A DNA stretch of 64,000 nucleotides from Escherichia coli (GTDB lineage: Bacteria; Pseudomonadota; Gammaproteobacteria; Enterobacterales; Enterobacteriaceae). The notes below the pieces were generated by a model. The model saw only the letters and a list, made by a program, of their open reading frames with translations. It made no database searches and had not been told where the DNA came from. How positions within the stretch are numbered: the stretch's first letter is position 1; each line of letters begins with the position of its first letter. The stretch lies in the NCBI RefSeq assembly GCF_009931435.1, contig NZ_CP043414.1; one strand, written 5' to 3'. Position numbers and translations under genes: made by a program. This document shows, piece after piece, positions 3,136-60,900 of the stretch.

Positions 3136-3215
3136 AGGCCTGATAAGTTGCGACAAGCGTCGCATCAGGCATTTGCTCCAGACGCCAGATGCGGCGTGAA
3201 CGCCTTATCTGGCCT
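3136..3215. repeat. REP/BIME-type palindromic intergenic repeat
   Basis: gcctgataag...gcatcaggc and gatgcggcgtgaacgccttatctggcctac motifs typical of enterobacterial REP units. Confidence 0.6.
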
Positions 3216-5000: not shown

Positions 5001-7433
5001 ATGACCACACTGAAACTGGACACGCTCAGCGACCGCATTAAAGCGCACAAAAATGCGCTGGTGAATATTGTGAAACCGCCGGTCTGTACCGAGCGCGCGC
5101 AGCACTATACCGAGATGTATCAACAACATCTCGATAAGCCGATCCCGGTACGTCGCGCTCTGGCGCTGGCCCATCACCTGGCGAATCGCACTATTTGGAT
5201 CAAGCACGATGAGTTGATCATCGGCAACCAGGCAAGCAAAGTTCGCGCCGCGCCGATCTTCCCGGAATATACCGTCTCCTGGATCGAAAAAGAGATTGAT
5301 GATCTGGCGGATCGTCCGGGTGCAGGTTTTGCGGTGAGCGAAGAGAACAAACGCGTTCTGCATGAAGTGTGCCCGTGGTGGCGCGGTCAGACGGTACAGG
5401 ATCGCTGCTATGGCATGTTTACCGATGAGCAAAAAGGCCTGCTGGCGACCGGTATCATTAAAGCGGAAGGTAATATGACCTCCGGCGATGCGCACCTGGC
5501 GGTCAATTTCCCACTGTTGCTGGAAAAAGGGCTTGATGGTTTGCGCGAGAAAGTGGCGGAGCGCCGCTCGCGTATTAACCTGACCGTGCTGGAAGATCTG
5601 CACGGCGAGCAGTTCCTGAAAGCGATTGATATCGTGCTGGTGGCGGTCAGTGAACATATTGAACGTTTCGCTGCCCTGGCGCGTGAAATGGCCGTTACCG
5701 AACCCCGCGAAAGCCGTCGCGATGAACTGCTGGCGATGGCCGAAAACTGCGACCTTATCGCCCACCAGCCGCCGCAGACTTTCTGGCAGGCGCTGCAACT
5801 GTGCTACTTCATCCAGTTGATTTTGCAGATCGAATCCAACGGACACTCGGTATCGTTTGGTCGTATGGACCAGTATCTCTACCCGTACTATCGCCGCGAC
5901 GTTGAACTGAACCAGACGCTGGATCGCGAACACGCCATCGAGATGCTGCATAGCTGCTGGCTGAAACTGCTGGAAGTGAACAAGATCCGCTCCGGCTCGC
6001 ACTCAAAAGCCTCTGCGGGAAGTCCGCTGTATCAGAACGTCACCATTGGCGGGCAAAATCTGGTTGATGGTCAGCCGATGGACGCGGTGAATCCACTCTC
6101 TTACGCGATCCTTGAATCCTGCGGTCGCCTGCGTTCGACGCAGCCTAACCTCAGCGTGCGCTACCACGCGGGAATGAGTAACGATTTCCTCGATGCCTGC
6201 GTACAGGTGATTCGCTGCGGCTTCGGGATGCCCGCGTTCAACAACGACGAAATCGTCATCCCGGAATTTATTAAACTCGGTATTGAACCGCAGGACGCTT
6301 ACGACTACGCGGCGATTGGCTGTATCGAAACCGCCGTCGGTGGCAAATGGGGCTATCGCTGCACCGGGATGAGCTTTATCAACTTCGCCCGCGTGATGCT
6401 GGCGGCGCTGGAAGGCGGTCGTGATGCCACCAGCGGCAAAGTGTTCCTGCCACAAGAAAAAGCGTTGTCAGCGGGTAACTTCAACAACTTCGATGAAGTG
6501 ATGGACGCGTGGGACACGCAAATCCGTTATTACACCCGTAAATCAATCGAAATCGAATATGTCGTCGACACCATGCTGGAAGAGAACGTGCACGATATTC
6601 TCTGCTCGGCGCTGGTGGATGACTGCATTGAGCGAGCGAAAAGTATCAAGCAAGGCGGCGCGAAATATGACTGGGTATCGGGCCTGCAGGTCGGCATTGC
6701 TAACCTCGGCAACAGCCTGGCGGCAGTGAAGAAACTGGTGTTTGAACAGGGCGCGATTGGTCAGCAACAACTGGCTGCCGCACTGGCGGATGACTTCGAC
6801 GGCCTGACGCACGAGCAGCTGCGTCAGCGGCTGATTAACGGCGCGCCGAAGTACGGCAACGACGATGATACTGTCGATACGCTGCTGGCTCGCGCTTATC
6901 AGACCTATATCGACGAACTGAAGCAGTACCATAATCCGCGCTACGGTCGTGGTCCGATTGGCGGCAACTATTACGCGGGTACGTCGTCTATCTCCGCTAA
7001 CGTACCGTTTGGCGCGCAAACTATGGCAACGCCGGACGGGCGTAAAGCCCACACCCCGCTGGCAGAAGGCGCAAGCCCGGCTTCCGGTACTGATCATCTT
7101 GGCCCTACTGCGGTCATTGGCTCGGTGGGTAAACTGCCTACGGCAGCGATTCTCGGCGGCGTGTTGCTCAACCAGAAACTGAATCCGGCAACGCTGGAGA
7201 ACGAATCTGACAAGCAGAAACTGATGATCCTGCTACGTACCTTCTTTGAGGTGCATAAAGGCTGGCATATTCAGTACAACATCGTTTCCCGCGAAACGCT
7301 GCTGGAAGCGAAAAAGCATCCGGATCAGTACCGCGATCTGGTGGTGCGCGTAGCGGGTTATTCCGCCTTCTTCACTGCGCTCTCTCCAGACGCACAGGAC
7401 GATATCATCGCCCGTACTGAACATATGCTGTAA
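5001..7433 (+). CDS. ybiW: Glycyl radical enzyme (PFL-like) YbiW
   Basis: 810 aa; C-terminal glycyl-radical motif region (VRVAGYSAFF); paired with upstream activase. Confidence 0.9.
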   Translation: MTTLKLDTLSDRIKAHKNALVNIVKPPVCTERAQHYTEMYQQHLDKPIPVRRALALAHHLANRTIWIKHDELIIGNQASKVRAAPIFPEYTVSWIEKEIDDLADRPGAGFAVSEENKRVLHEVCPWWRGQTVQDRCYGMFTDEQKGLLATGIIKAEGNMTSGDAHLAVNFPLLLEKGLDGLREKVAERRSRINLTVLEDLHGEQFLKAIDIVLVAVSEHIERFAALAREMAVTEPRESRRDELLAMAENCDLIAHQPPQTFWQALQLCYFIQLILQIESNGHSVSFGRMDQYLYPYYRRDVELNQTLDREHAIEMLHSCWLKLLEVNKIRSGSHSKASAGSPLYQNVTIGGQNLVDGQPMDAVNPLSYAILESCGRLRSTQPNLSVRYHAGMSNDFLDACVQVIRCGFGMPAFNNDEIVIPEFIKLGIEPQDAYDYAAIGCIETAVGGKWGYRCTGMSFINFARVMLAALEGGRDATSGKVFLPQEKALSAGNFNNFDEVMDAWDTQIRYYTRKSIEIEYVVDTMLEENVHDILCSALVDDCIERAKSIKQGGAKYDWVSGLQVGIANLGNSLAAVKKLVFEQGAIGQQQLAAALADDFDGLTHEQLRQRLINGAPKYGNDDDTVDTLLARAYQTYIDELKQYHNPRYGRGPIGGNYYAGTSSISANVPFGAQTMATPDGRKAHTPLAEGASPASGTDHLGPTAVIGSVGKLPTAAILGGVLLNQKLNPATLENESDKQKLMILLRTFFEVHKGWHIQYNIVSRETLLEAKKHPDQYRDLVVRVAGYSAFFTALSPDAQDDIIARTEHML

Positions 7434-7572
7434 TCTCCTTCGCCCGGTAACGGTTGTTGCCGGGCGAAAATACTCATCCCATCGATATTATTTTAATCCG
7501 AAATAAATTTGTGCTCCGCGTCACATTGTCATTACACTGTGGCGGTTTGCATTCATTGTCAGGAGCACATCT

Positions 7573-8388
7573 ATGAGCGTAAAAGTTATCGTCACAGACA
7601 TGGACGGTACTTTTCTGAGCGACGCCAAAACGTACAACAATGAGCGTTTTATGGTGCAATATCAGGAACTTAAAAAGCGCGGCATTGAGTTCGTTGTCGC
7701 CAGCGGTAATCAGTATTACCAGCTTATTTCGTTCTTTCCTGAGCTAAAGGATGAGATCTCTTTTGTCGCGGAAAACGGCGCACTGGTTTACGAACATGGC
7801 AAGCAACTGTTCCACGGCGAACTGACCCGACATGAATCAAGAGTTGTCATTGGTGAACTGCTGAAAGACAAGCAGCTCAATTTTGTTGCCTGCGGTTTGC
7901 AAAGCGCGTATGTCAGTGAGAATGCGCCAGAAGCATTCGTCGCGCTAATGGCAAAACACTACCATCGTCTGAAACCTGTGAAAGATTACCAGGATATTGA
8001 TGATGTACTGTTCAAGTTTTCGCTCAACCTGCCTGACGAACAAATCCCGTTAGTGATCGACAAACTGCATATTACGCTCGATGGCATTATGAAGCCCGTC
8101 ACCAGTGGTTTTGGCTTTATCGACCTGATTATTCCTGGCCTGCATAAAGCGAATGGTATTTCGCGGTTACTGAAACGCTGGGATCTGTCACCGCAAAATG
8201 TGGTAGCGATTGGCGACAGCGGTAACGATGCGGAGATGCTGAAAATGGCGCGTTATTCCTTTGCGATGGGCAATGCTGCGGAAAACATTAAACAAATCTC
8301 CCGTTACGCTACCGATGATAATAATCATGAAGGCGCGCTGAATGTGATTCAGGCGGTGCTGGATAACACCGCTCCTTTCAATAAGTAA
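7573..8388 (+). CDS. ybiV: HAD-family sugar phosphatase YbiV
   Basis: 271 aa, N-terminal DxDGT motif (VTDMDGTFL). Confidence 0.85.
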
Positions 8389-12837: not shown

Positions 12838-13956
12838 CTACCAGGCCGGGAGCATAACGAATAAAACGTATCCCACCAGCGCCGCCCACAACAGCATCGG
12901 TATCGAATAAAGATGAAAACGCCACCAGATACGGCGATCGTTCGCCATCCGTAATGCAATCAAATTTGCCAGCGATCCGGGTAATAAACCAAAGCCACCG
13001 ACGTTTACCGCCCATGCCAGTAATAAAGACGGTGGCACATAATTGAGGAGCAAAATCGTGCTCGGCACATTACTGATCACCTGCGATAAACCAATTGCCG
13101 TTAACCATAATCCGGGTTCGGATAAATGGCTCACATTGCTCAACACGCCCTGCAAAGCTGGCAGTTGGGTCAGCAAATGGACGTCGATAAACATCGCCAT
13201 AAATACCAGCAGCAGCGTCCAGTCCACGCTGATCACCACGCGACGAGCCAGCAGCGCAAAGCCCGCCGCTACAATCACCAGTCCCCACAGCTCTTGTTTT
13301 AACTCCAGCGCCGTCAGAAAGACGATATACAGCCCCAGACAACTCCACACCAGCCGCGGTTTCCACTCAGGTGTTTGCGCCCCCGTATGATATTGCAGCG
13401 CCTTTCCAGGGAAACAACACCAGCACAGTAGCAGGAGTGTCAGCATCATTGCGCCAGCCAGCGGTGCCATTTGGGCAATAAACCCGGCAAACGAAAGACC
13501 AGAACGACCCCAGATAAGAATATTTTGCGGGTTGCCAATCGGCGTCAGTAGCGAACCCGCATTGACTGCCAGCGCCTCAAAAATAATCAGTCGATTAACC
13601 GGGATCTCACACAGTCTTTTTAGCGTGATGGTCAGCGGAACAACTATAAACAGCGCGACATCGTTGGTCAGAAAGGTAGAAAGTAGCGCCGCCGCCAGCA
13701 CCATAAACATCGCCAGCCGTCGCTCCGTAGCAAAGCGGCGCACCATTTTGCGCCCCAGCACATCAAAATAACCGCTTAACTCCACACCTTTGGTCAGCAG
13801 CATCAGACCGCTTAAGGTGATGATGGTGTGCCAGTCGATAGCAGCAGGCCAGGATTTCGGTGCAAAGGGAACAAAAAAACTTAATCCGATGCCAACAAGA
13901 ATTAATAACTGAAAAAAACGATCGCCTTGCAGCGTGCGTAAAAAAGGCAGGCTCAT
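12838..13956 (-). CDS. ybiR: Inner-membrane transporter YbiR (ArsB/NhaD-like permease)
   Basis: 372 aa, highly hydrophobic multi-TM protein; syntenic. Confidence 0.8.
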
Positions 13957-14420
13957 TTGGCACCGTGTTTCTGGGTAAACAAACGAAAGGCATCCAGCGT
14001 CTCTTCACTAACATGGTGCTCCATGCCTTCCGCGTCGCGACGGGCGATTTCCGGACTGACGCCCAACACCAACAAGAAATTTTCGACTATCTGATGTCGC
14101 TCGCGGCTTTCCTGCGCCAGTTTCTCTCCTTCTGCCGTTAAAAACACGCCACGCCAGGGGATCATTTCAATCAGCCCCATGGTTGCCAGTCGTTTGAGCA
14201 TTTTAGCCACCGTCGGTTGCGAAACGCCCAGACGAGCAGCCATGTCCACCTGACGAGCTTCCCCCACTTCCCTGATCAAGTCAGAAATCAGCTCAACGTA
14301 ATCATCAATAAGCTCGCGCCGGTGTGCCTCTCTGACCTGGCGGAACCCTTCAACGTGCTCTTCCACATTCACTAACTGCGTCACTTTTTTTGCTGTTGGC
14401 GTACCTGCGCGACGACTCAT
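13953..14420 (-). CDS. mntR: Manganese-responsive transcriptional regulator MntR (DtxR family)
   Basis: 155 aa [31 protein letters not shown]...; recognised MntR. Confidence 0.9.
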
Positions 14421-14520: not shown

Positions 14521-14547
14521 AGCTATATAATATAGCCATTGCTAAAT
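14521..14547. repeat. Left junction repeat with MntR-box-like dyad (candidate attL/target duplication)
   Basis: agctatataatatagccattgctaaat; 22/27 identical to 45328-45354; lies inside larger palindrome tttagcaatagctatat/atatagccattgctaaa (14512-14546). Confidence 0.4.
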
Positions 14548-14824
14548 ACATAAAATCAAATAAAATCATAATGTTAACAAAACAAAAAAAATAATCAATG
14601 TCGCAAAAATGTCTCACAAAACAAAAGCCATAACTTATTTGCTTGTTTTTTTATAGTGTCAGTATTAATCTAGTATATCAAAATGTTATCACTTCAATTA
14701 TTCTCTGCTTAACATTTATTTAAGAAATAATATTTTTAAGCTCTTTAAAAAAACCTTAAATAACGCTGATAGTTTCTTAGGAAAACTTAACGATAGTGGT
14801 AAATTAATCCCAAAGGACTAAAAA

Positions 14825-16060
14825 ATGGTATTAAGTAACTGTATTCAATGTCAGTCATGCAAATTTATATATAGAGTTAGGGTTGGTATTGGGTTTGATA
14901 AATACCAAAGACATTATATGGACTGTTTTGAGTGTAATATTCCTATTGTTTTTGCTATACGAACAGACCCACCAAATGCTTATCTTGAAGCGGAAGAAAA
15001 CTGCCTAATTGTTGAACATAGTACAGACCACAAGGTTGTTAACTTCCATCCGGGATGTGCTTTTAATAAAGATGAGATACATCAGTCACTGATATTCCCA
15101 TCTATTGAATTGACACAAATGATTCATAAACATATGAGGATGCCGAAAGGACAACGCCTTATAAGTGCCTCTCATCAATTTGATATTCCCAACGCCCCCT
15201 CCAAATGGAATTATTTAAAATCAATAATAAAACTTATTAATGAAGGAAAGAAAGACAAAGCTCAGAATACAGCAAAGCTTTATATGCAATCAAGAAATAA
15301 AGAGTTACCTTTGTATAATGAAGATGATAGCTATTCCTCTACATCTCTAATCTATGAGTTTTTAGATTGGCTTTTCTATCCTCGAGTACATGATATAGCC
15401 GATTCCATTAAAAAAACAATTGATGACCTTAAAGAACAAAATTTGTTGGATGATTTTTACGCTTTCTATAAAGAAAATTTAAAATCCGAAAATGAACAAA
15501 GATACATCAATATAATATCAGATTTCATGGCTCGTAGAGATCATTTCGGGCAGTTAATCTATTACGCAAGAATTAACAACGATGCAATAGACGATAAGAT
15601 AATTAGCTCTAAGAACTTCGATAATGTAAGAAATTATTATGGAGATGCTTATGAAAGTCTGACATCTAACATGACTATTTTAGCATGTATTAATAACATC
15701 GTCAGTGGAAGGGCATTCGATCAGTTCAAGCAAATGACATTGAATAAATACATAAAGGATGTAAATAAAGACAGTAAAACAAACCCATTTAAGGACAACC
15801 CTTTATTTAGCGCATTTTGTGAAGATGATTTAGAGTCAGCAATAAGAAATGGTTCTCATCATGCCTCTATATGGCATGACGGAGAGAGTATTCGATATAG
15901 AAGTGGCGGAACTGGCGCAGAAAGAGAAATAAGCTATACAAAATATATTCACCTTTGTAATAAGCTAACTCTTAAAATCGTAAGTTTGTGGTTAATTGAA
16001 CTTCATATCCAACATATTTACGAAAAAGATGATAATAGCTATGCATGGTTTCATCTTTAA
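14825..16060 (+). CDS. Hypothetical 411-aa protein with N-terminal CxxCxxC...CxxC zinc-ribbon-like cluster; orphan cargo, candidate defence/abortive-infection protein
   Basis: ORF track; A/T-rich codon usage, preceded by ~270 bp of extremely A/T-rich DNA; Cys at 6,9,12,34,37; R-x4-H (RNGSHH) near C-terminus; no family recognised. Confidence 0.5.
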   Translation: MVLSNCIQCQSCKFIYRVRVGIGFDKYQRHYMDCFECNIPIVFAIRTDPPNAYLEAEENCLIVEHSTDHKVVNFHPGCAFNKDEIHQSLIFPSIELTQMIHKHMRMPKGQRLISASHQFDIPNAPSKWNYLKSIIKLINEGKKDKAQNTAKLYMQSRNKELPLYNEDDSYSSTSLIYEFLDWLFYPRVHDIADSIKKTIDDLKEQNLLDDFYAFYKENLKSENEQRYINIISDFMARRDHFGQLIYYARINNDAIDDKIISSKNFDNVRNYYGDAYESLTSNMTILACINNIVSGRAFDQFKQMTLNKYIKDVNKDSKTNPFKDNPLFSAFCEDDLESAIRNGSHHASIWHDGESIRYRSGGTGAEREISYTKYIHLCNKLTLKIVSLWLIELHIQHIYEKDDNSYAWFHL

Positions 16061-16081
16061 GTTAAATATTTGATTCACTAA

Positions 16082-16368
16082 TTTTCAGTTTCTACTCACT
16101 CTAATGATTGTACATAGCCCGCACCATTCTTGGTATTGCGGGCTTTCAGCCGTTTATATCACTTAACGCAATTAGATCATGCAACTTTACACAATATGGT
16201 TTTTTCTATTATTTTTCAGTTGGTTGAATGGATTAGCCATCACACAACTGATCTATAAAACTGAAAAACACTGAAATTCTTTTCAATCTTTTCAGTGGCA
16301 GCTCTCCGGCAAACCGCCAACAGTGGCGCAGCCTGACGCTCACGTTTGTAGAAAAATAAAACTGAAAA
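16082..16368. repeat. Non-coding region with repeated TTTTCAG / CTGAAAA heptamers
   Basis: TTTTCAG at about 16082, 16213, 16289; CTGAAAA/CTGAAAT at about 16261, 16271, 16362; between convergent cargo gene and phage tail operon. Confidence 0.4.
16116..16144 (+). terminator. Possible terminator downstream of the 411-aa gene
   Basis: Hairpin agcccgca...tgcgggct followed by ttcagccgtttat (weak T-run). Confidence 0.35.
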
Positions 16369-16555
16369 ATTTTATCGATCCAGAAACCGCAGGCGGGTGC
16401 GGTGTAGTGCCATTTTGGTCTGCGAAAGATTTATTTTGTCAGTGCGTAGTGCCGTCAGCGCAACGTGACAGCACAGATCCTTTTGTGGTGTTACGGGATG
16501 GTGGTCAGAGAAAAAAAGTGCTTAGAATGCTTCTGGTTGCGTGAGAATACAGGTA

Positions 16556-16578
16556 TAAAAAACCCGCACTAGGCGGGT
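16556..16578 (-). terminator. Rho-independent terminator of the phage late (tail) operon
   Basis: On minus strand: hairpin cccgcctagtgcggg followed by ttttttatac, 12 nt after stop of 16590-16844 ORF. Confidence 0.6.
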
Positions 16579-16589
16579 ACTAAAGAGAG

Positions 16590-16844
16590 CTATTTCATTT
16601 CGTTAAGTGCGTACGCACCTCTATCAGTGAGTGCAAAAAAGCCATCCCTTACGCTGGGTTGAATCAACCCAAACATACGCAATTCACCCAGTATTTGTTC
16701 TGAGCGACTACCAGCACCAGAATGCTTAATTAGTGCAAATTCAGGCTGTGCTTCTTCACTGAGCAAAGTCAATATTTTGACAATGGCGTCACGTTTGCTT
16801 TCATCTGCAATGTCATGGTATGGATTGATGGAACAGGTTACCAT
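16590..16844 (-). CDS. Hypothetical 84-aa protein, possible winged-helix DNA-binding fold
   Basis: ORF track; last gene of tail-operon direction; C-terminal segment GSRSEQILGELRMFGLIQ...FFALTDRGAYAL resembles wHTH regulators. Confidence 0.4.
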   Translation of the reverse strand: MVTCSINPYHDIADESKRDAIVKILTLLSEEAQPEFALIKHSGAGSRSEQILGELRMFGLIQPSVRDGFFALTDRGAYALNEMK

Positions 16845-17020
16845 AGTGTTTTCCTTTTTTTATGAAAATCATATTTTACCATATCCCAACACGCCATATT
16901 GAAGTGCTCAATATTCACTCACCCTAAAAGGTATCTGTTGTGCAATCAGTTCCCCTACTCCCAGGTATCGCGGTTAAACAGGTATCAAAAAGCCGCATTA
17001 TGCGCGGGCTGATGGGATGA

Positions 17021-18724
17021 TCAGGCGATGATTTTCTGGTACTTACTTCGGGTCTGTCCTGCTTTCTCTGCTGTCTGGGTAAATGCTCCGGCATTGGTTG
17101 GCGTACCAACACTGGGGTGCGAATGACTCGCACATTGCTGCGCCAGCTCTGCCAGTAAATCAATGGTGTCCAACATCATGGTCAGCGTGTTTACACTCTC
17201 ACTGCCGATATGGATGGTTGGCCCCATAATCTGCTGACCGCCCGATGCTACCGATTTGCGTAATGCAGTAATCTTTTCAGTCAGGCTTTCGCCAACCTCC
17301 ACGGCTACAGCACCGCCCACTTTAATGGACTGCTGTCCTGCTATGTCCGTTTCTTCGTTTCCTTCAATGCTGGCCAGCCTGTTACCTTTCACGGCCTGGC
17401 TAAAATCCCCGGCACTGACCTGCTGAATGGCTCCGGCTAGCAGGGTGGCGGTCCCCACCACAATGGTTTTATCCGTGGCTTTAACCGTGGTTTCGCGACT
17501 GACCAGATCACGTTGTTCTGTATCTGCTTTTACCGTTCGCACCATCGATGTTTCACTGATGGTCTGATCGGTCTGCCTTACCCAGTCACCCGCCAGAGTC
17601 ACCCTCTGGGATACTTCTTCCCGCTGCTGCTGCAATTGCTCACCGGGTTTAACGTCCGGCAGACTGGTGCCATCCGGTAGCGTCTGCCTGATAAAAGGTT
17701 TATCCGGTCTGCCTCCTGTGAATGCGACCTCAACCAGCGTCCCTTCTGGCGGGAACTGAAACATACCTGAATCATTCCCGGCCATTGGTACCGGCAGCGG
17801 CACCGCTGAATAAACAGGCGTCTGATTGTCCGGATTTCCGTCTGCGTCAAGCAGCTGCACGTCCACGGCGTAACGTGGCCGGAAGGGATCGGCAAAGTTA
17901 CCGCTTTTTACCGGCTCTGAATGCGCCACGACTCTGGCCATCTTTGGCAAATGAAGCCCGGATGCCAGTTCCGGGTAATGGCTTTCAATCTGCCGTTGCG
18001 CTGGTGTTTTCTGCAAAGGTTTACCCGTTGCGCGGTTTCTCGGCGTCCATGTGATCGCCATCGTGTCATTAGTCAGGTGAACTTTAGTCACGCGTTCACC
18101 GTTCATCTCCACCCCTGGCCGCATAGTCTGGATCACTGGTAATGTCACAGAGTTACCGCCAGCAGCCCCCTGGCTGAACTCTGACGGGATTTCTACTGGA
18201 CGACCGGCAAACAATGACTTTTCTGCGCCGCCGACGTAAAGCGAACCATCAGGTAACTGGTACCAGATGTAATCCTGGATACTGAACGCCCTGCCCAGAT
18301 TGTTCAGCAACTGATAACCAGTACCGTTATGGGTAAAATGTGGGATGGGGGTATCGCTGTACTGTGCATCAGGCACACTGACCGTGATCCCGCTGTTTTC
18401 TTCCAGCCAGCCCGCAATTTCACGCAAAGTCGGGTGTTGAAACGAACATGGCCACATCCTTTCAAACACACCTACCAGCTCACGAATGAATAGGCGCTGA
18501 AAACCGTTTTCAGCGGGCTGCGATCGCTCCACATACCCCGTAAACCAGCGCAAAAGCAGATCGGTATACCCCACATCCAGCCGCACCAGTTTTCCGGTGT
18601 AATCGGTTGTTGTCTCTGCGGTGATGAAGCCCCGGCCGCAGCTGTTCAGCTCCAGTACCAGGCTGACATCCACCAGGTGAACTTCATCCGTTGAAAGGTA
18701 AAGACGTTTTACTGGTTTCATCAT
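17021..18724 (-). CDS. Phage tail/baseplate protein, probable hub-spike (gpD/VgrG-like), 567 aa
   Basis: Size, position at end of tail module, Gly/Thr/Val-rich beta-strand-like C-terminal half; family assignment by recall only. Confidence 0.45.
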   Translation of the reverse strand: MMKPVKRLYLSTDEVHLVDVSLVLELNSCGRGFITAETTTDYTGKLVRLDVGYTDLLLRWFTGYVERSQPAENGFQRLFIRELVGVFERMWPCSFQHPTLREIAGWLEENSGITVSVPDAQYSDTPIPHFTHNGTGYQLLNNLGRAFSIQDYIWYQLPDGSLYVGGAEKSLFAGRPVEIPSEFSQGAAGGNSVTLPVIQTMRPGVEMNGERVTKVHLTNDTMAITWTPRNRATGKPLQKTPAQRQIESHYPELASGLHLPKMARVVAHSEPVKSGNFADPFRPRYAVDVQLLDADGNPDNQTPVYSAVPLPVPMAGNDSGMFQFPPEGTLVEVAFTGGRPDKPFIRQTLPDGTSLPDVKPGEQLQQQREEVSQRVTLAGDWVRQTDQTISETSMVRTVKADTEQRDLVSRETTVKATDKTIVVGTATLLAGAIQQVSAGDFSQAVKGNRLASIEGNEETDIAGQQSIKVGGAVAVEVGESLTEKITALRKSVASGGQQIMGPTIHIGSESVNTLTMMLDTIDLLAELAQQCASHSHPSVGTPTNAGAFTQTAEKAGQTRSKYQKIIA

Positions 18725-39651: not shown

Positions 39652-40517
39652 GCCACCACCGCCCGAACATCGATCGCAGGGTTAGCAGGTGACTTAAGAA
39701 TCAGCTCAGCGGCCATTTTCTGGCTTGCAGCTGCTGCACCCACACTACGTGGCGCATTTACCCGAACAGCGTCGAATCCTGCATACAGGTAATGCACCAT
39801 TTCCAGATCGCTATTTGACGCGACAACCTTAATCCCACGCTCAGTCAGGCGGCGCAGCTTACGCGCCAGCCGTCCCTGATCCATGTGCGAAAAACCGCGC
39901 TCATGGTAAGCGGTGAAATTATCGCTATCAGTCAGGTAAGGCGGATCACAATAAACAACGTCATGCCCGTCCCTTACCAAATCAAGCGTTTCTGAATAGT
40001 GGGCAGTAATGAACGTTGCACGTTTCGCTTTTTCAGCAAAAGCGCGGATTTCATCAGCAGGAAAGTAGGTTTTTTTGTACTTACCAAAAGGAACATTGAA
40101 CTGGCCACGGCGATTGTATCGGCACAGGCCATTGAAGCAGTGACGGTTCAGATAAAGAAAACGCGCCGCAGCTTCCACAGATTCAGAACCAAAGGATTTG
40201 CCTGATTGGTTGAAGGCATCACGCACCGCGTAATAGAAAACAGCGCGGCTTTCTTCATTGCCTAATGAACCGGCAGAAAATAAAGCCTCCAGCTCAATGA
40301 GCAATGCATCAGTCTGATAGGCCATTGTCTTATACAGATTAACCAGGTCGGGATTCACATCAGCGATCAGGTACTCGCCATAATCCGTATTCATCATGAC
40401 AGCACATGAACCGGCAAAAGGTTCTATCAGGCGCTTGCCCTCCGGCAGATGGGGAAGCAACTGCGGCATAAGGCGGGCTTTACTGCCCACCCACTTAAGC
40501 GGAGTTTTTACTGCCAT
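39648..40517 (-). CDS. DNA adenine methyltransferase (Dam-like N6-adenine MTase), prophage-encoded
   Basis: 289 aa with N-terminal FAGS (EPFAGSCAV) SAM motif and DPPY catalytic motif (VVYCDPPYL). Confidence 0.8.
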   Translation of the reverse strand: MAVKTPLKWVGSKARLMPQLLPHLPEGKRLIEPFAGSCAVMMNTDYGEYLIADVNPDLVNLYKTMAYQTDALLIELEALFSAGSLGNEESRAVFYYAVRDAFNQSGKSFGSESVEAAARFLYLNRHCFNGLCRYNRRGQFNVPFGKYKKTYFPADEIRAFAEKAKRATFITAHYSETLDLVRDGHDVVYCDPPYLTDSDNFTAYHERGFSHMDQGRLARKLRRLTERGIKVVASNSDLEMVHYLYAGFDAVRVNAPRSVGAAAASQKMAAELILKSPANPAIDVRAVVA

Positions 40518-43304: not shown

Positions 43305-44360
43305 ATGAGTGTTCGTAAACTTCCTACTGGCGAATGGATCGCCGACTTCTACACCGTCAACCGCAGCAATGGTAAAAACGGGAAGCGTATACGTAAAAAA
43401 TTTGCCACTAAGGGAGAAGCCCTGGCATTTGAGAATCACACGCTTCAAAAGGTAGATAGTGCGCCGTGGTTAGGTGAAGGGAAAGATAAACGAACATTAA
43501 TCGACCTGATTACAATGTGGTACGAGCGCCACGGCGTTGCCCTACGCAATGGTAAAAAGCGTAAAGACGCAATGACCTGGGCGGCGGAGTGTATGGGTTT
43601 TCCGCTGGCCACTGAGTTTAATGCCCAGCTGTTTACAGCATACCGTGCAAAAAGGCTTGAAGGGCATTATGCCCGTACTAACCGTGTTTCTAAGGTTTCA
43701 CCTAAAACAATGAACCTTGAACACGCATATTTTCTGGCTATGTTCAATGAACTGAAACGGATCGGTGAGTGGTCAGCCCCTAACCCACTGGAGAACGTCA
43801 GACAGTACCGTACAGATGAAACTGAAATGGCATTTCTCACTGCTGAGGAAATTGATCGGCTTTTGCTGGAATGCAAACGCAGTAAAGTAAGTTATTTAGA
43901 GTTAGTCGTAAAAATCTGTCTGGCGACTGGCGCAAGATGGAATGAAGCGGCAACACTCAAAAGTTCCCAGATAGCCGGCGGAAAAGTCACCTTCATAAAA
44001 ACAAAAGGGAAAAGGAACCGTTCCATTCCGTTAGATGATGAACTGCTGGCTGAACTACCCGAAACAAAAGGCGCTCTGTTTCCAAAGCCCTGCTATAACG
44101 CTTTCCGTTCCGCTCTGGAACGTGCTGGCATTGAACTACCAGCAGGTCAGCTTACCCACGTACTACGCCATACATTTGCCAGCCACTTTATGATGAACAG
44201 CGGCAACATTCTGGTTCTCCAAAAAATCCTCGGCCATGCCGATATCACTATGACAATGCGGTATGCGCATTTCGCCCCAAGCCACCTTGAAGACGCTGTG
44301 CGACTTAATCCCTTAAAATGCCGCAGCAGCTTAGAAATACTGTCGAGTACCAAAACATAA
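43305..44360 (+). CDS. int: Tyrosine-type phage integrase
   Basis: 351 aa; C-terminal catalytic region HVLRHTFASH...LGHADITMTMRYAHF (R, HxxR, Y). Confidence 0.85.
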   Translation: MSVRKLPTGEWIADFYTVNRSNGKNGKRIRKKFATKGEALAFENHTLQKVDSAPWLGEGKDKRTLIDLITMWYERHGVALRNGKKRKDAMTWAAECMGFPLATEFNAQLFTAYRAKRLEGHYARTNRVSKVSPKTMNLEHAYFLAMFNELKRIGEWSAPNPLENVRQYRTDETEMAFLTAEEIDRLLLECKRSKVSYLELVVKICLATGARWNEAATLKSSQIAGGKVTFIKTKGKRNRSIPLDDELLAELPETKGALFPKPCYNAFRSALERAGIELPAGQLTHVLRHTFASHFMMNSGNILVLQKILGHADITMTMRYAHFAPSHLEDAVRLNPLKCRSSLEILSSTKT

Positions 44361-44380
44361 ACAACAAAGATAAAAGGTCT

Positions 44381-44962
44381 CTAACCTGTTTTCAGCAACA
44401 ACCACTGGAGGAAAACAACAACAATGTAGATTAAAGTTACAGACCCCAGAAACAGCAATAGTTGACAAAAATGAATAAAGGCCGGATGGTGAAGTTTTTG
44501 AGGAACCAAGGTTATATTTCGTGCAATTCCTTCTTTACATCTCACTGTGAGCAACGCGGGTAAGTCAGTATTTATCGACATAACCTCACATCGTATAGAT
44601 TCATGTGGTGCAAGATAATCAAACAACATAACCTGCCTTTCTTCGGCATCACTCTTAATTGTGTAATGCCTTGAGGGCCAAATGTTTACGTACATAGGTG
44701 GGTAATTGAAAATTATCTCCACATTAGTAGCAGGTTCTTTTCCTTCGTTTTTAAAGGCATAGGATTTTGTATGCACCACCTGTTTTGCCTTAACAATTTC
44801 ACCTTCAGCATTACGTAACGGCTCGTTAATTAAATAGCTATATTGGTGAAGCTCTCCATAGCAAATTTTCGCTCCATTTTTAAAAATCTTATTGATAAAT
44901 AAGGTAAAAACAGGAACGAAAAGTGCAAATATTTCTTTCCCATACTGAGTAAGTATATTCAT
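44381..44962 (-). CDS. Hypothetical 193-aa protein with C-terminal TM helix; orphan cargo adjacent to int
   Basis: ORF track; A/T-rich; hydrophobic C-terminus AFIHFCQLLLFLGSVTLIYIVVVFLQWLLL; convergent with int; weak RBS. Confidence 0.4.
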   Translation of the reverse strand: MNILTQYGKEIFALFVPVFTLFINKIFKNGAKICYGELHQYSYLINEPLRNAEGEIVKAKQVVHTKSYAFKNEGKEPATNVEIIFNYPPMYVNIWPSRHYTIKSDAEERQVMLFDYLAPHESIRCEVMSINTDLPALLTVRCKEGIARNITLVPQKLHHPAFIHFCQLLLFLGSVTLIYIVVVFLQWLLLKTG

Positions 44963-45104
44963 TACTTGTCCACAAAAAGTTGAAATGGTTACCCACCGTG
45001 TTCCTAAAGCAGTCGTTCACCCTACTCTAGTTCTTAGAATAGAAATTCTACATAACTTCAAGCAGCTAACTCAACATAACAATTGAAAAGGTAATCACTC
45101 TGTA

Positions 45105-45260
45105 AGCGTACCCATTTTAATTTCAGCCGCTTTCTGGCTTGCAGCCGCTACCCCCGCATTGCGCGGTGCATTTCGCCCCAAGCTACCTTGAAGAAGCTGT
45201 ACGCTTAACCCCTTAAAATGTCGCAAAATTGTCGCGACAGCTTAGAAACACTGCCGAATA
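45105..45260. pseudogene. Fossil fragments of a related element: dam-like 3' end (minus sense) fused to int-like 3' end (plus sense)
   Basis: 45121-45180 about 75 percent identical to dam 3' region 39703-39760; 45168-45260 about 90 percent identical to int 3' end 44268-44350 but with 1-nt deletion and ~11-nt insertion. Confidence 0.5.
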
Positions 45261-45327
45261 CTCACGAATATTAACTAACGTAACTTATTGATAACACTGT
45301 AAGTTACTGTTTTTCGTAGATAGTTAA

Positions 45328-45354
45328 TGCTTTATAATATAGCCTGTGCTATAT
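45328..45354. promoter_or_regulatory. Right junction repeat containing MntR box (ATAGC-N4-GCTAT) upstream of mntS
   Basis: tgctttataatatagcctgtgctatat; palindrome ATAGCctgtGCTAT matches MntR operator architecture; 22/27 identical to 14521-14547. Confidence 0.5.
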
Positions 45355-45412: not shown

Positions 45413-45541
45413 ATGAATGAGTTCAAGAGGTGTATGCGCGTGTTTAGTCATTCTCCCTTTAAAGTACGGTTAATGCTGCTCTCTATGTTGTGCGATATGG
45501 TCAACAACAAACCGCAGCAAGATAAACCTTCCGATAAATAG
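45413..45541 (+). CDS. mntS: Small protein MntS (manganese homeostasis)
   Basis: 42-aa ORF MNEFKRCMRVFSHSPFKVRLMLLSMLCDMVNNKPQQDKPSDK with strong aggagg RBS; below ORF-track cutoff. Confidence 0.8.
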   Translation: MNEFKRCMRVFSHSPFKVRLMLLSMLCDMVNNKPQQDKPSDK

Positions 45542-60774: not shown

Positions 60775-60900
60775 CGTAGGCTGGATAAGGCGTTCACGTC
60801 GCATCCGGCAACAGGTGCCTGATGCGACGCTACCGCATCTTATCAGGCCTACAAAATCCGAACCGTTTGACGGATAAGGCGTTTACGCTACGTCCAGCAT
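60775..60900. repeat. REP/BIME palindromic repeat cluster
   Basis: gtaggctggataaggcgttcacgtcgcatccggca ... gcctgatgcgacgctaccgcatcttatcaggcctac. Confidence 0.6.

Follow-up and report, generated by a model that had tools for sequence, protein, structure and literature searches.

Attachment sites and the position of ORF193

A 64,000-nucleotide stretch of Escherichia coli contig NZ_CP043414.1 (hereafter the window) carries a P2-like prophage with a small, A/T-rich gene on the far side of its integrase gene. This arrangement raises three questions: whether the open reading frame, here called ORF193, is a real gene of this phage, what its product might do, and how it came to reside between int and the attachment site.

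The prophage, of about 30.8 kb, occupies the spacer between mntR (13953-14420) and mntS (45413-45541). CI, CII, Fil, Dam and a replication endonuclease make up an early region of the 186 type, and the tail module is of the HP1 type. The 12-bp core sequence TATAATATAGCC is present as a single copy in K-12 and as one copy on each side of the insert in the window. Consistent with this assignment, 5,421 of 5,426 complete E. coli genomes match the window again only from about 45326 onward. The features that define the ends of the element are as follows.

14526..14537 (+), attL core TATAATATAGCC, left end of the 30.8-kb element, ORF193 included, from comparison with the empty K-12 site
43305..44360 (+), int1, the resident tyrosine integrase (351 aa), from annotation and a match to the phrog_1 integrase family (4e-73)
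44381..44962 (-), ORF193 coding sequence, 193 aa plus TAG stop with an ATG start, from a six-frame ORF list
45216..45332 (+), functional P arm, between the stop codon of a second int 3ˊ end (int2) and the core
45217..45233, candidate Int arm-type site AATGTCGCAAAATTGTC within the functional P arm, with the motif also at 14597-14613
45333..45344 (+), attR core TATAATATAGCC, with the start codon of mntS 69-80 bp downstream, from comparison with the empty K-12 site

ORF193 is located inside the att-bounded element, between int and attR. The original prediction had placed the gene between int and the right junction, and the att cores do bracket it. However, that prediction set the junction at 45104, whereas the true attR core is at 45333-45344 and a duplicate of the int 3ˊ end (45168-45261) intervenes.

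A 17-nt motif, AATGTCGCAAAAnTGTC, is found only twice in the window (at 14597 and 45217; 0.06 occurrences expected). Because one copy is in the P arm and the other in the Pˊ arm (14597-14613), the two are plausible Int arm-type sites. The motif was rejected as the att core because the empty K-12 site yields TATAATATAGCC. Likewise, the copy of the int 3ˊ end at 45168-45261 was rejected as a conserved host attB because 5,400 E. coli genomes match only from about 45326. The last 15 or so codons of int1 itself run through P-arm-like sequence.

ORF193 is a genuine gene

The stop codons of ORF193 and int are 20 bp apart and the two genes are convergent. At 0.366, the GC content of ORF193 is lower than that of int (0.472), the host flank (0.509), or the prophage body (0.513). 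Both the orientation and the A/T-richness are therefore as originally described. Homologs of the gene have a GC content of 31-41% in all loci compared.

The Shine-Dalgarno sequence of ORF193 is weak, and the upstream region contains one promoter candidate.

45045..45074 (-), candidate sigma-70 promoter (TTGAGT-18-TAGAAT) located about 80 nt before the ATG of ORF193

This candidate is a consensus match without enrichment over shuffled sequences. No terminator was found downstream of ORF193 in the window, and Rfam yielded no RNA features at the locus. Among the loci that carry homologs, most have similarly placed −10-like boxes upstream, and several have a hairpin with a run of T nucleotides downstream, which is clear at loci in the slot that the family usually occupies.

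These observations bear on the possibility that ORF193 is a non-functional relic whose frame has stayed intact by chance. Its location in a deletion scar (see below), the loss of the native terminator, the poor Shine-Dalgarno sequence, and a promoter candidate that does not exceed chance expectation would all fit such a fate. However, the frame is intact and 99-100% conserved across six E. coli genomes of differing backgrounds. In addition, dN/dS values of 0.06-0.22 for unsaturated pairs indicate purifying selection across the whole family, and the value for ORF193 of the window against its homolog in L027 is 0.13. We consequently give the relic explanation hardly any weight. Conservation of the family, the near-constant length of its members and their alignment from Met1, and the low dN/dS together show that ORF193 is a real gene as opposed to a chance ORF.

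Extent of the ORF193 family

A search of 5.8 billion proteins recovered 41 close clusters, nearly all of exactly 193 aa, with 43-99% identity to ORF193. These derive from Escherichia, Yersinia, Edwardsiella, Lelliottia, Scandinavium, Rahnella, Ewingella, Citrobacter, Pantoea, and Pectobacterium. When 1.84 billion cluster representatives were scanned exhaustively with HMMER, the family grew to 410 clusters (counted at 50% identity) with E<=1e-3, of which 196 also reach E<=1e-10; nearly all have lengths of 185-205 aa. The alignment of homologs begins at Met1, which confirms the start codon. Some members are N-terminally extended, but these revealed no informative domain fusions, and the extensions look like mis-called starts or low-complexity inserts. 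Within E. coli the gene is rare and patchy, with about 14 carriers among the 5,426 complete genomes.

ORF193 has no match in Pfam at E<=10, none in NCBIfam, and none among the families of PADLOC-DB 2.0 at E<=1. PHROGs returns only a marginal match (E=0.007) that covers 26 residues and leads to a family of unknown function. A profile search of the 5.8-billion-protein set with a deep alignment added no annotated relatives; this alignment was too divergent to seed the scan for loci, for which a closer ORF193 alignment was used. A literature search on accessions of family proteins and on Yersinia phage vB_YenM_324 found nothing. As judged by these comparisons, ORF193 belongs to no described family. 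The original prediction had recognised no family and had proposed a remote-homology search, which uncovered no characterised relative, only the uncharacterised family of about 410 clusters.

One true homolog is vBYenM324_038 (UKL54225.1) of Yersinia phage vB_YenM_324 (Peduoviridae, Tresduoquattuorvirus), which has 193 aa, 66% amino acid identity to ORF193, and the same architecture. It too is annotated as a hypothetical protein, as are the unnamed orthologs in Enterobacterales. The two differ in location, since vBYenM324_038 occupies the native slot at the tail end, which is the end of the linear record, whereas ORF193 of the window is beside int.

Native slot and mobility of the family

Comparison of loci places the usual slot of the family across attP from int, directly after the last tail gene. 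In vB_YenM_324 the homolog is on the same strand as, and just downstream of, the last tail-module gene, which is itself homologous to the 567-aa gene at 17021-18724 of the window. The same slot is used in E. coli prophages, an Ewingella prophage, several IMG/VR proviruses, and a 30.8-kb circular Pantoea plasmid that corresponds to an excised form of the same phage type. In some cases the homolog is only about 100 bp past the last tail gene. In E. coli mip270_05, a related prophage occupies the mntR-mntS site as well, and its attL end carries, in order, mntR, a PIN-domain gene, an ORF193 homolog, and the gene for the 567-aa tail protein.

The contents of the tail-end slot are hypervariable among near-identical phages. 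The window and one other genome have orf411 there, TK3887 has a gene for a 345-aa protein that matches the PADLOC candidate PDC-S64, 1919D3 has a serine acetyltransferase gene, and mip270 has the PIN gene together with the ORF193 homolog. ORF193 is absent from about 21 prophages at the same chromosomal site, and other genes replace its homolog in the native slot of near-identical phages.

Homologs are also found in settings other than complete phages. In an integrative island of Pectobacterium the homolog adjoins a Gabija system (GajA/GajB confirmed), and in PICI-like satellites of E. coli and of IMG/VR contigs it is the terminal cargo gene. In Edwardsiella it stands alone by ybjL, at the host junction where Ewingella holds a full prophage. 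In Citrobacter and Pantoea an intact homolog follows fragments of truncated tail genes, and in Lelliottia one closes a gutted int-cI-cIIˊ remnant. Homology among the loci of different hosts is confined to the ORF and 15 bp on either side, and the divergence of ORF193 does not follow that of the adjoining tail gene. No conserved partner gene was seen in the more than 20 loci examined.

Taken as a set, these loci mark ORF193 as an accessory cargo gene that is mobile as a single-gene unit rather than a core phage gene. Linkage to the tail operon is frequent, but phages can do without the gene and it moves independently, which argues that it has no part in the phage life cycle. The suspicion that the gene is of the moron type is therefore supported: slot contents differ among near-identical phages, its base composition departs from that of the prophage, homologs survive alone in decayed prophages, and comparison of related prophages finds the gene absent or replaced where a conserved life-cycle gene would be retained.

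The tail-end position does invite another explanation, namely that ORF193 is a dispensable late helper expressed with the tail operon, which keeps progeny or sister phages from losing genomes to cells already infected or lysing, tunes lysis, or aids passage of the genome through the inner membrane. Homologs are on the same strand as, and directly after, the last tail-module gene in many phages of different genera. There is precedent for such neighbourhoods, as exclusion genes such as cor and llp also adjoin tail or receptor-binding genes. However, near-identical phages lack ORF193 or carry other cargo in its place, and the copy in the window is conserved despite being detached from the tail operon and pointing towards int. 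Furthermore, homologs are found in satellites and islands that have no tail genes, they are retained where all late genes have been lost, they diverge out of step with the neighbouring tail gene, and most of their loci have −10-like elements of their own. A late helper role is therefore improbable.

In the Pectobacterium island, genes for Hcp and for a large unknown protein are found within a few kb of the homolog. This neighbourhood would suit an immunity protein against a membrane-targeting toxin, such as a T6SS/T7SS effector, a CDI toxin, or a bacteriocin. DUF3592 proteins, which resemble ORF193 in structure but are unrelated, occur in LXG toxin loci (PMC12482557), which is also in keeping with this role. 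However, a gene on the opposite strand separates Hcp from the homolog in this island, and no toxin gene is adjacent in any of the more than 20 loci. Moreover, ORF193 is always a stand-alone unit whose homology ends within 15 bp of the ORF. Toxin immunity thus seems very unlikely.

Predicted structure and membrane topology

An AlphaFold2 model built from an alignment of 99 sequences has a mean pLDDT of 95.3 and a pTM of 0.80. It comprises a helix (residues 3-26), a nine-strand beta-sandwich (33-141), and a second helix (160-192). Kyte-Doolittle hydropathy peaks at residues 9-29 and 159-193. The original prediction had noted a hydrophobic C-terminal helix and a partly hydrophobic N-terminus, and had proposed topology and structure prediction as a check; both segments coincide with helices of the model. 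Combining model and hydropathy gives the following predicted parts.

residues ~11-27, first transmembrane segment (TM1)
residues 33-141, Ig-like beta-sandwich
residues ~165-190, second transmembrane segment (TM2)

ORF193 is therefore predicted to be an inner-membrane protein anchored twice, by one helix at each end. Throughout the family, a cluster of Lys and Arg residues directly follows TM1 (positions 25, 28, 30, and 32; summed frequency about 3.0) and a second immediately precedes TM2 (about 2.0). The N-terminal tail is net acidic and the C-terminal tail is three residues long. Given the two basic clusters and the acidic N-terminal tail, we infer from the positive-inside rule alone that the sandwich is cytoplasmic and that both termini are outside.

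The sandwich carries a conserved N72-x-G74-R...A78 turn, typical of Ig-like/CARDB-type sandwiches, and conserved charged residues at E82, R98, R109, E121, and R141. Within TM2, G173 is invariant and both Y179 (89%) and Q186 are conserved, which suggests that the membrane part is more than a mere anchor. The small and polar character of these conserved residues likewise suggests oligomerization.

Searches with the model retrieved only generic Ig-like sandwiches from the PDB and nothing meaningful from the viral folds of BFVD. Full-length neighbours in AFDB50 are uncharacterised proteins, some or many of them labelled DUF3592, with TM-scores of 0.6-0.76 and 17-26% identity for the labelled matches. 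DUF3592 proteins (PF12158) such as YmfA of E. coli K-12 do have the layout of a beta-domain between two transmembrane segments in common with ORF193. However, the membership hinted at by these labels was rejected. None of 99 members of the ORF193 family match PF12158 at E<=0.1, or even at E<=10, whereas YmfA as a positive control matches at 1.6e-6, and hhalign of the family against YmfA gives a probability of 0.7%. YmfA also has a strongly basic C-terminal tail that implies a periplasmic domain, which is the opposite of the topology indicated by charge bias in ORF193. The likeness to DUF3592 is a resemblance of fold only.

Two other classes of membrane or exported protein were considered and rejected. 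A holin is inconsistent with the roughly 135 residues between the helices, which form a large folded domain; the location of the gene at the att end and its occurrence without any phage also speak against a holin or other lysis-cassette protein. A lipoprotein or secreted protein was dismissed for want of a lipobox or signal-peptidase motif and, again, because of the large folded domain between the helices.

Proposed function of ORF193

The role that we consider most likely for ORF193 is superinfection exclusion or abortive infection at the inner membrane, although we place it somewhat short of an even chance. This role is favoured by the att-proximal slots and PICI ends that the family occupies, the Gabija neighbour, the PDC-S64 protein or PIN-domain protein encoded in the tail-end slot of near-identical phages, low GC content, −10-like elements and terminators at homolog loci, patchy distribution, and retention after prophage decay, where the defence context comprises a handful of loci and not a statistical survey. 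According to preprint 10.64898/2026.02.27.708500, the slot between int and att is a minor defence hotspot that accounts for 3% of P2 defence systems, and PICI ends are described as hotspots of immunity (PMC11364771). No homology to a known Sie, Abi, or defence protein emerged from PADLOC, NCBIfam, Pfam, PHROGs, or the fold searches.

Under this proposal, a lysogen would express ORF193 from its own promoter, and the protein, acting at the inner membrane, would shield host cell and prophage alike from other phages. Anchored at both ends, it would hold its Ig-like sandwich of about 110 residues against the cytoplasmic face, while its termini would barely reach the periplasm. If it acts by exclusion, it might block genome entry. 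If it acts by abortive infection, the cytoplasmic sandwich might sense a phage product, whereupon the conserved transmembrane pair (G173, Y179, and Q186) would oligomerize and depolarize the membrane.

Comparison with characterised proteins offers partial parallels to each variant. The concept of superinfection exclusion at the inner membrane has been described (PMC10461980, PMC3594210). Like P22 SieA, T4 Imm, and HK97 gp15, ORF193 is a small prophage protein encoded outside the lytic operons; it is predicted to reside in the inner membrane, and its gene is in an att-bounded prophage and convergent with int. In contrast to ORF193, however, these proteins are mostly embedded in the membrane and have no large soluble domain, and no likeness to them in sequence or fold was detected with PHROGs, PADLOC, the PDB, or BFVD. 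Furthermore, hardly any part of ORF193 is predicted to be periplasmic, which would be unusual for a protein that blocks injection and counts against that variant.

Membrane effectors of abortive infection, such as those of the CBASS Cap15 type and RexB, combine transmembrane helices with a cytoplasmic, beta-rich possible sensor, as ORF193 is predicted to do. However, the Cap15-type domain is a beta-barrel whereas that of ORF193 is an Ig-like sandwich. ORF193 also stands alone in every locus, with no partner sensor or cyclase.

With respect to genomic context, the family occupies slots of the kind described as hotspots in P2-like phages and PICIs (Rousset et al. 2022, PMC9122126; 10.64898/2026.02.27.708500; PMC11364771). 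In the window, int ends at 44360, ORF193 spans 44381-44962, and attR follows at 45333-45344, as in the P2 int-att hotspot. A prophage-borne membrane accessory gene in a cargo hotspot is a familiar kind of thing. Cargo that takes its place in the paired slot at the tail end includes a PADLOC candidate. ORF193 differs in that it is not among the systems in PADLOC 2.0. Neither the tail-end/attP slot of the HP1-tailed subgroup nor a scar route across attP was found in this hotspot literature (PMC9122126, 10.64898/2026.02.27.708500, PMC11364771).

ORF193 could instead serve the host, as a membrane protein of lysogenic conversion or host fitness, such as a modulator of an inner-membrane transporter, of envelope stress, or of signalling, that is kept for the benefit it confers. 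Solitary intact homologs are retained in chromosomes after prophage decay, PADLOC assigns ORF193 to no defence family, and the cargo slot also holds genes that do not look like defence genes, such as the serine acetyltransferase. The Ig-like/MSP-like cytoplasmic domain could also bind a host peptide motif. Set against these points, the family recurs in slots and islands that hold defence genes, and its rarity (about 14 of 5,426 E. coli genomes) reflects a turnover that is typical of conflict genes and not of general fitness genes. We regard a host-fitness role as unlikely, though it deserves more weight than the late helper or toxin immunity.

If ORF193 is indeed a defence or exclusion factor, it would add a compact single-gene membrane system of unfamiliar architecture to the anti-phage repertoire. 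It would also provide a function for a large unannotated family that is passed around Enterobacterales and beyond by prophages, satellites, and islands. In addition, its survival in decayed prophages would be a clean example of the domestication of a phage gene by the host. The family is a cheap candidate for defence-gene screens and annotation profiles.

A prophage scar to the right of int

The sequence between int and attR holds remnants that bear on how ORF193 reached this position.

44267..44350 (+), direct repeat copy 1, int 3ˊ end and start of the P arm (repeat families D5 and D12)
44351..44380 (strand not applicable), new junction, where P-arm homology ends at 44350 and homology to ORF193 loci starts from about 44370
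45131..45173, dam fragment of 43 bp, homologous to prophage dam at 39717-39759 with 81% identity in the same orientation (repeat family D2)
45168..45261 (+), direct repeat copy 2, int2 3ˊ end without the catalytic Tyr region, and start of the P arm

Copy 1 takes in the final ~85 nt of int and a few nucleotides past it. The two repeat copies are about 80-90% identical, with about 90% identity over 59 nt. Copy 2 shares 95.7% identity with the end of int in the 1919D3-type prophage, which occupies the same site without ORF193. In the approximately 21 E. coli genomes that carry this type, int runs directly into the P arm and mntS. Rightward from int, the landmarks begin with ORF193 (minus strand), followed by the dam fragment and then by an int 3ˊ end with P arm. 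This order is collinear with a phage that carries ORF193 in its native slot, and the dam fragment is likewise collinear with the phage map (tail end, dam, int). At the junction 44351-44380 we found neither an att core between int and ORF193 nor a terminator, whereas homologs in the native slot have a hairpin and a run of T nucleotides there. Sequence comparison matched no source for the 165 bp upstream of ORF193.

A scar that is flanked by two int 3ˊ ends and includes a dam fragment indicates that ORF193 reached the int side by recombination with a second related prophage. Presumably, the mntR-mntS site once carried both prophages in tandem, with the resident one on the left. The second prophage would then have been deleted almost whole to leave a 0.97-kb scar composed of ORF193, the 43-bp dam fragment, and the int 3ˊ end with its P arm. 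One deletion would have removed both the internal attP-like junction and the terminator of ORF193. Such a tandem-prophage history is the most economical reading that we infer from the sequence, although it requires at least three deletions. Because the outer att cores bracket everything, the scar would be part of the excisable element, and the resident phage would now carry it between int and attP and spread with it.

The claim that ORF193 is inserted between int and attP thus stands as regards the slot, but the usual slot of the family is across attP, and here the gene resides in a scar. The original prediction held this position to be atypical; the scar route by which cargo may cross attP would account for how genes can occur between int and att. 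Whatever the function of ORF193, the locus appears to exemplify this crossing, in which a tandem prophage becomes a scar that is then excised with the resident phage.

A broader proposal combines this history with the function discussed above. ORF193 may found a new, widespread family of single-gene, double-anchored inner-membrane anti-phage proteins, in which the sandwich is the sensor and the transmembrane pair the effector. Its members would reside in att-proximal hotspots of P2-like phages and PICIs and be kept by hosts after prophage decay, with tandem lysogeny and deletion moving the cargo across attP. We advance this combined proposal tentatively, as one that is possible but on balance doubtful.

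Comparison of carriers indicates that the element and its scar travel together between different E. coli lineages. In three strains, from Brazil, Korea, and Japan, the element with its scar has diverged from that of the window by no more than 0.05-0.12%. In contrast, the host DNA beside the element in these three strains is 2% different from the window and 0.2-0.4% different from one another. Clonal descent of the six identical arrangements was therefore rejected, since host flanks are up to 2% apart while the element differs by about 0.1%. A fourth carrier of the element is 1.3% different from the window in element and host DNA alike.

Integrase genes and attachment sites

The integrase gene of the prophage and ORF193, the gene for a 193-aa predicted inner-membrane protein, are convergent and are separated by a 20-bp gap without a terminator, and therefore their transcripts may overlap in antisense. 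The resident integrase has 351 aa. A 1-nt indel distinguishes its gene from the remnant copy, which is the 3ˊ end of a second integrase gene together with a P arm, and causes its frame to continue into P-arm-like sequence (44300-44360 compared with 45200-45215). The frame of the remnant copy stops at 45213-45215 (…RLTP*), and the intact integrase of E. coli strain 1919D3, which carries a related prophage at the same site, is annotated as 346 aa.

The sites associated with integration are as follows.

14526-14537 and 45333-45344: att core TATAATATAGCC, mntR-mntS intergenic region
14597-14613 (P' arm) and 45217-45233 (P arm): motif AATGTCGCAAAA(A/T)TGTC, candidate integrase arm-type binding sites

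The arm-type motif occurs exactly twice in 64 kb, once per arm, compared to an expectation of 0.06, and a degenerate counterpart is present at 44316-44332, just past the resident integrase gene. The att core is located within the short mntR-mntS spacer, where the MntR operator presumably resides, and the start codon of mntS follows 69-80 bp downstream. At attR, integration has replaced host AATAGCTATA with phage GTTAATGCTT directly to the left of the core, and this substitution may alter MntR-dependent control of mntS.

The host flanks on either side of the prophage carry two matches to Rfam naRNA4, which are ordinary and have no relation to the ORF193 finding.

3137-3214 (-) and 60779-60849 (+): naRNA4 matches (REP-element derived)

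Cargo at the tail end of the prophage

The attL side of the prophage, opposite ORF193, is occupied by a further orphan cargo gene, orf411, which borders a non-coding stretch (16061-16584) that contains a cluster of repeats.

14825-16060 (+): orf411, 411 aa, GC content 0.33
16212-16369: CTGAAAAA cluster, three copies plus degenerate copies
16585-16845 (-): small conserved ORF between the cargo boundary and the last tail gene

Searches of PHROG, PADLOC and NCBIfam yielded no match for orf411, and among complete E. coli genomes it has a single other carrier. The slot is filled differently in near-identical phages: with a PDC-S64 defence candidate, with a serine acetyltransferase, or with a PIN protein and an ORF193 homolog. 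The counterpart of the small ORF in related prophages is annotated as an 84-aa hypothetical protein.

The CTGAAAAA cluster lies at the border between the variable cargo and the conserved phage backbone, and homology with other copies of the phage begins within it, at ~16255. The window contains 14 occurrences of this sequence versus 3.4 expected, and many ORF193 homologs have a similar motif ~95-100 nt upstream. The cluster may serve in regulation or mark a recombination boundary.

Genomic contexts of ORF193 homologs

In Ewingella americana, an ORF193 homolog is located at the end of a full prophage adjoining the host genes ybjL-ybjM-grxA. A solitary homolog in Edwardsiella tarda adjoins the same host genes, and this locus looks like a prophage that has shrunk to the ORF193 homolog alone. 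In PICI-like satellites (L052 of E. coli 357900, gene 7001-7582, and loci L039-L048), a family member with 44% identity forms the last gene of the accessory cargo. These satellites carry a DUF927 primase, a PerC regulator and a TerS-like gene, and their ORF193-family gene adjoins the host smrA junction.
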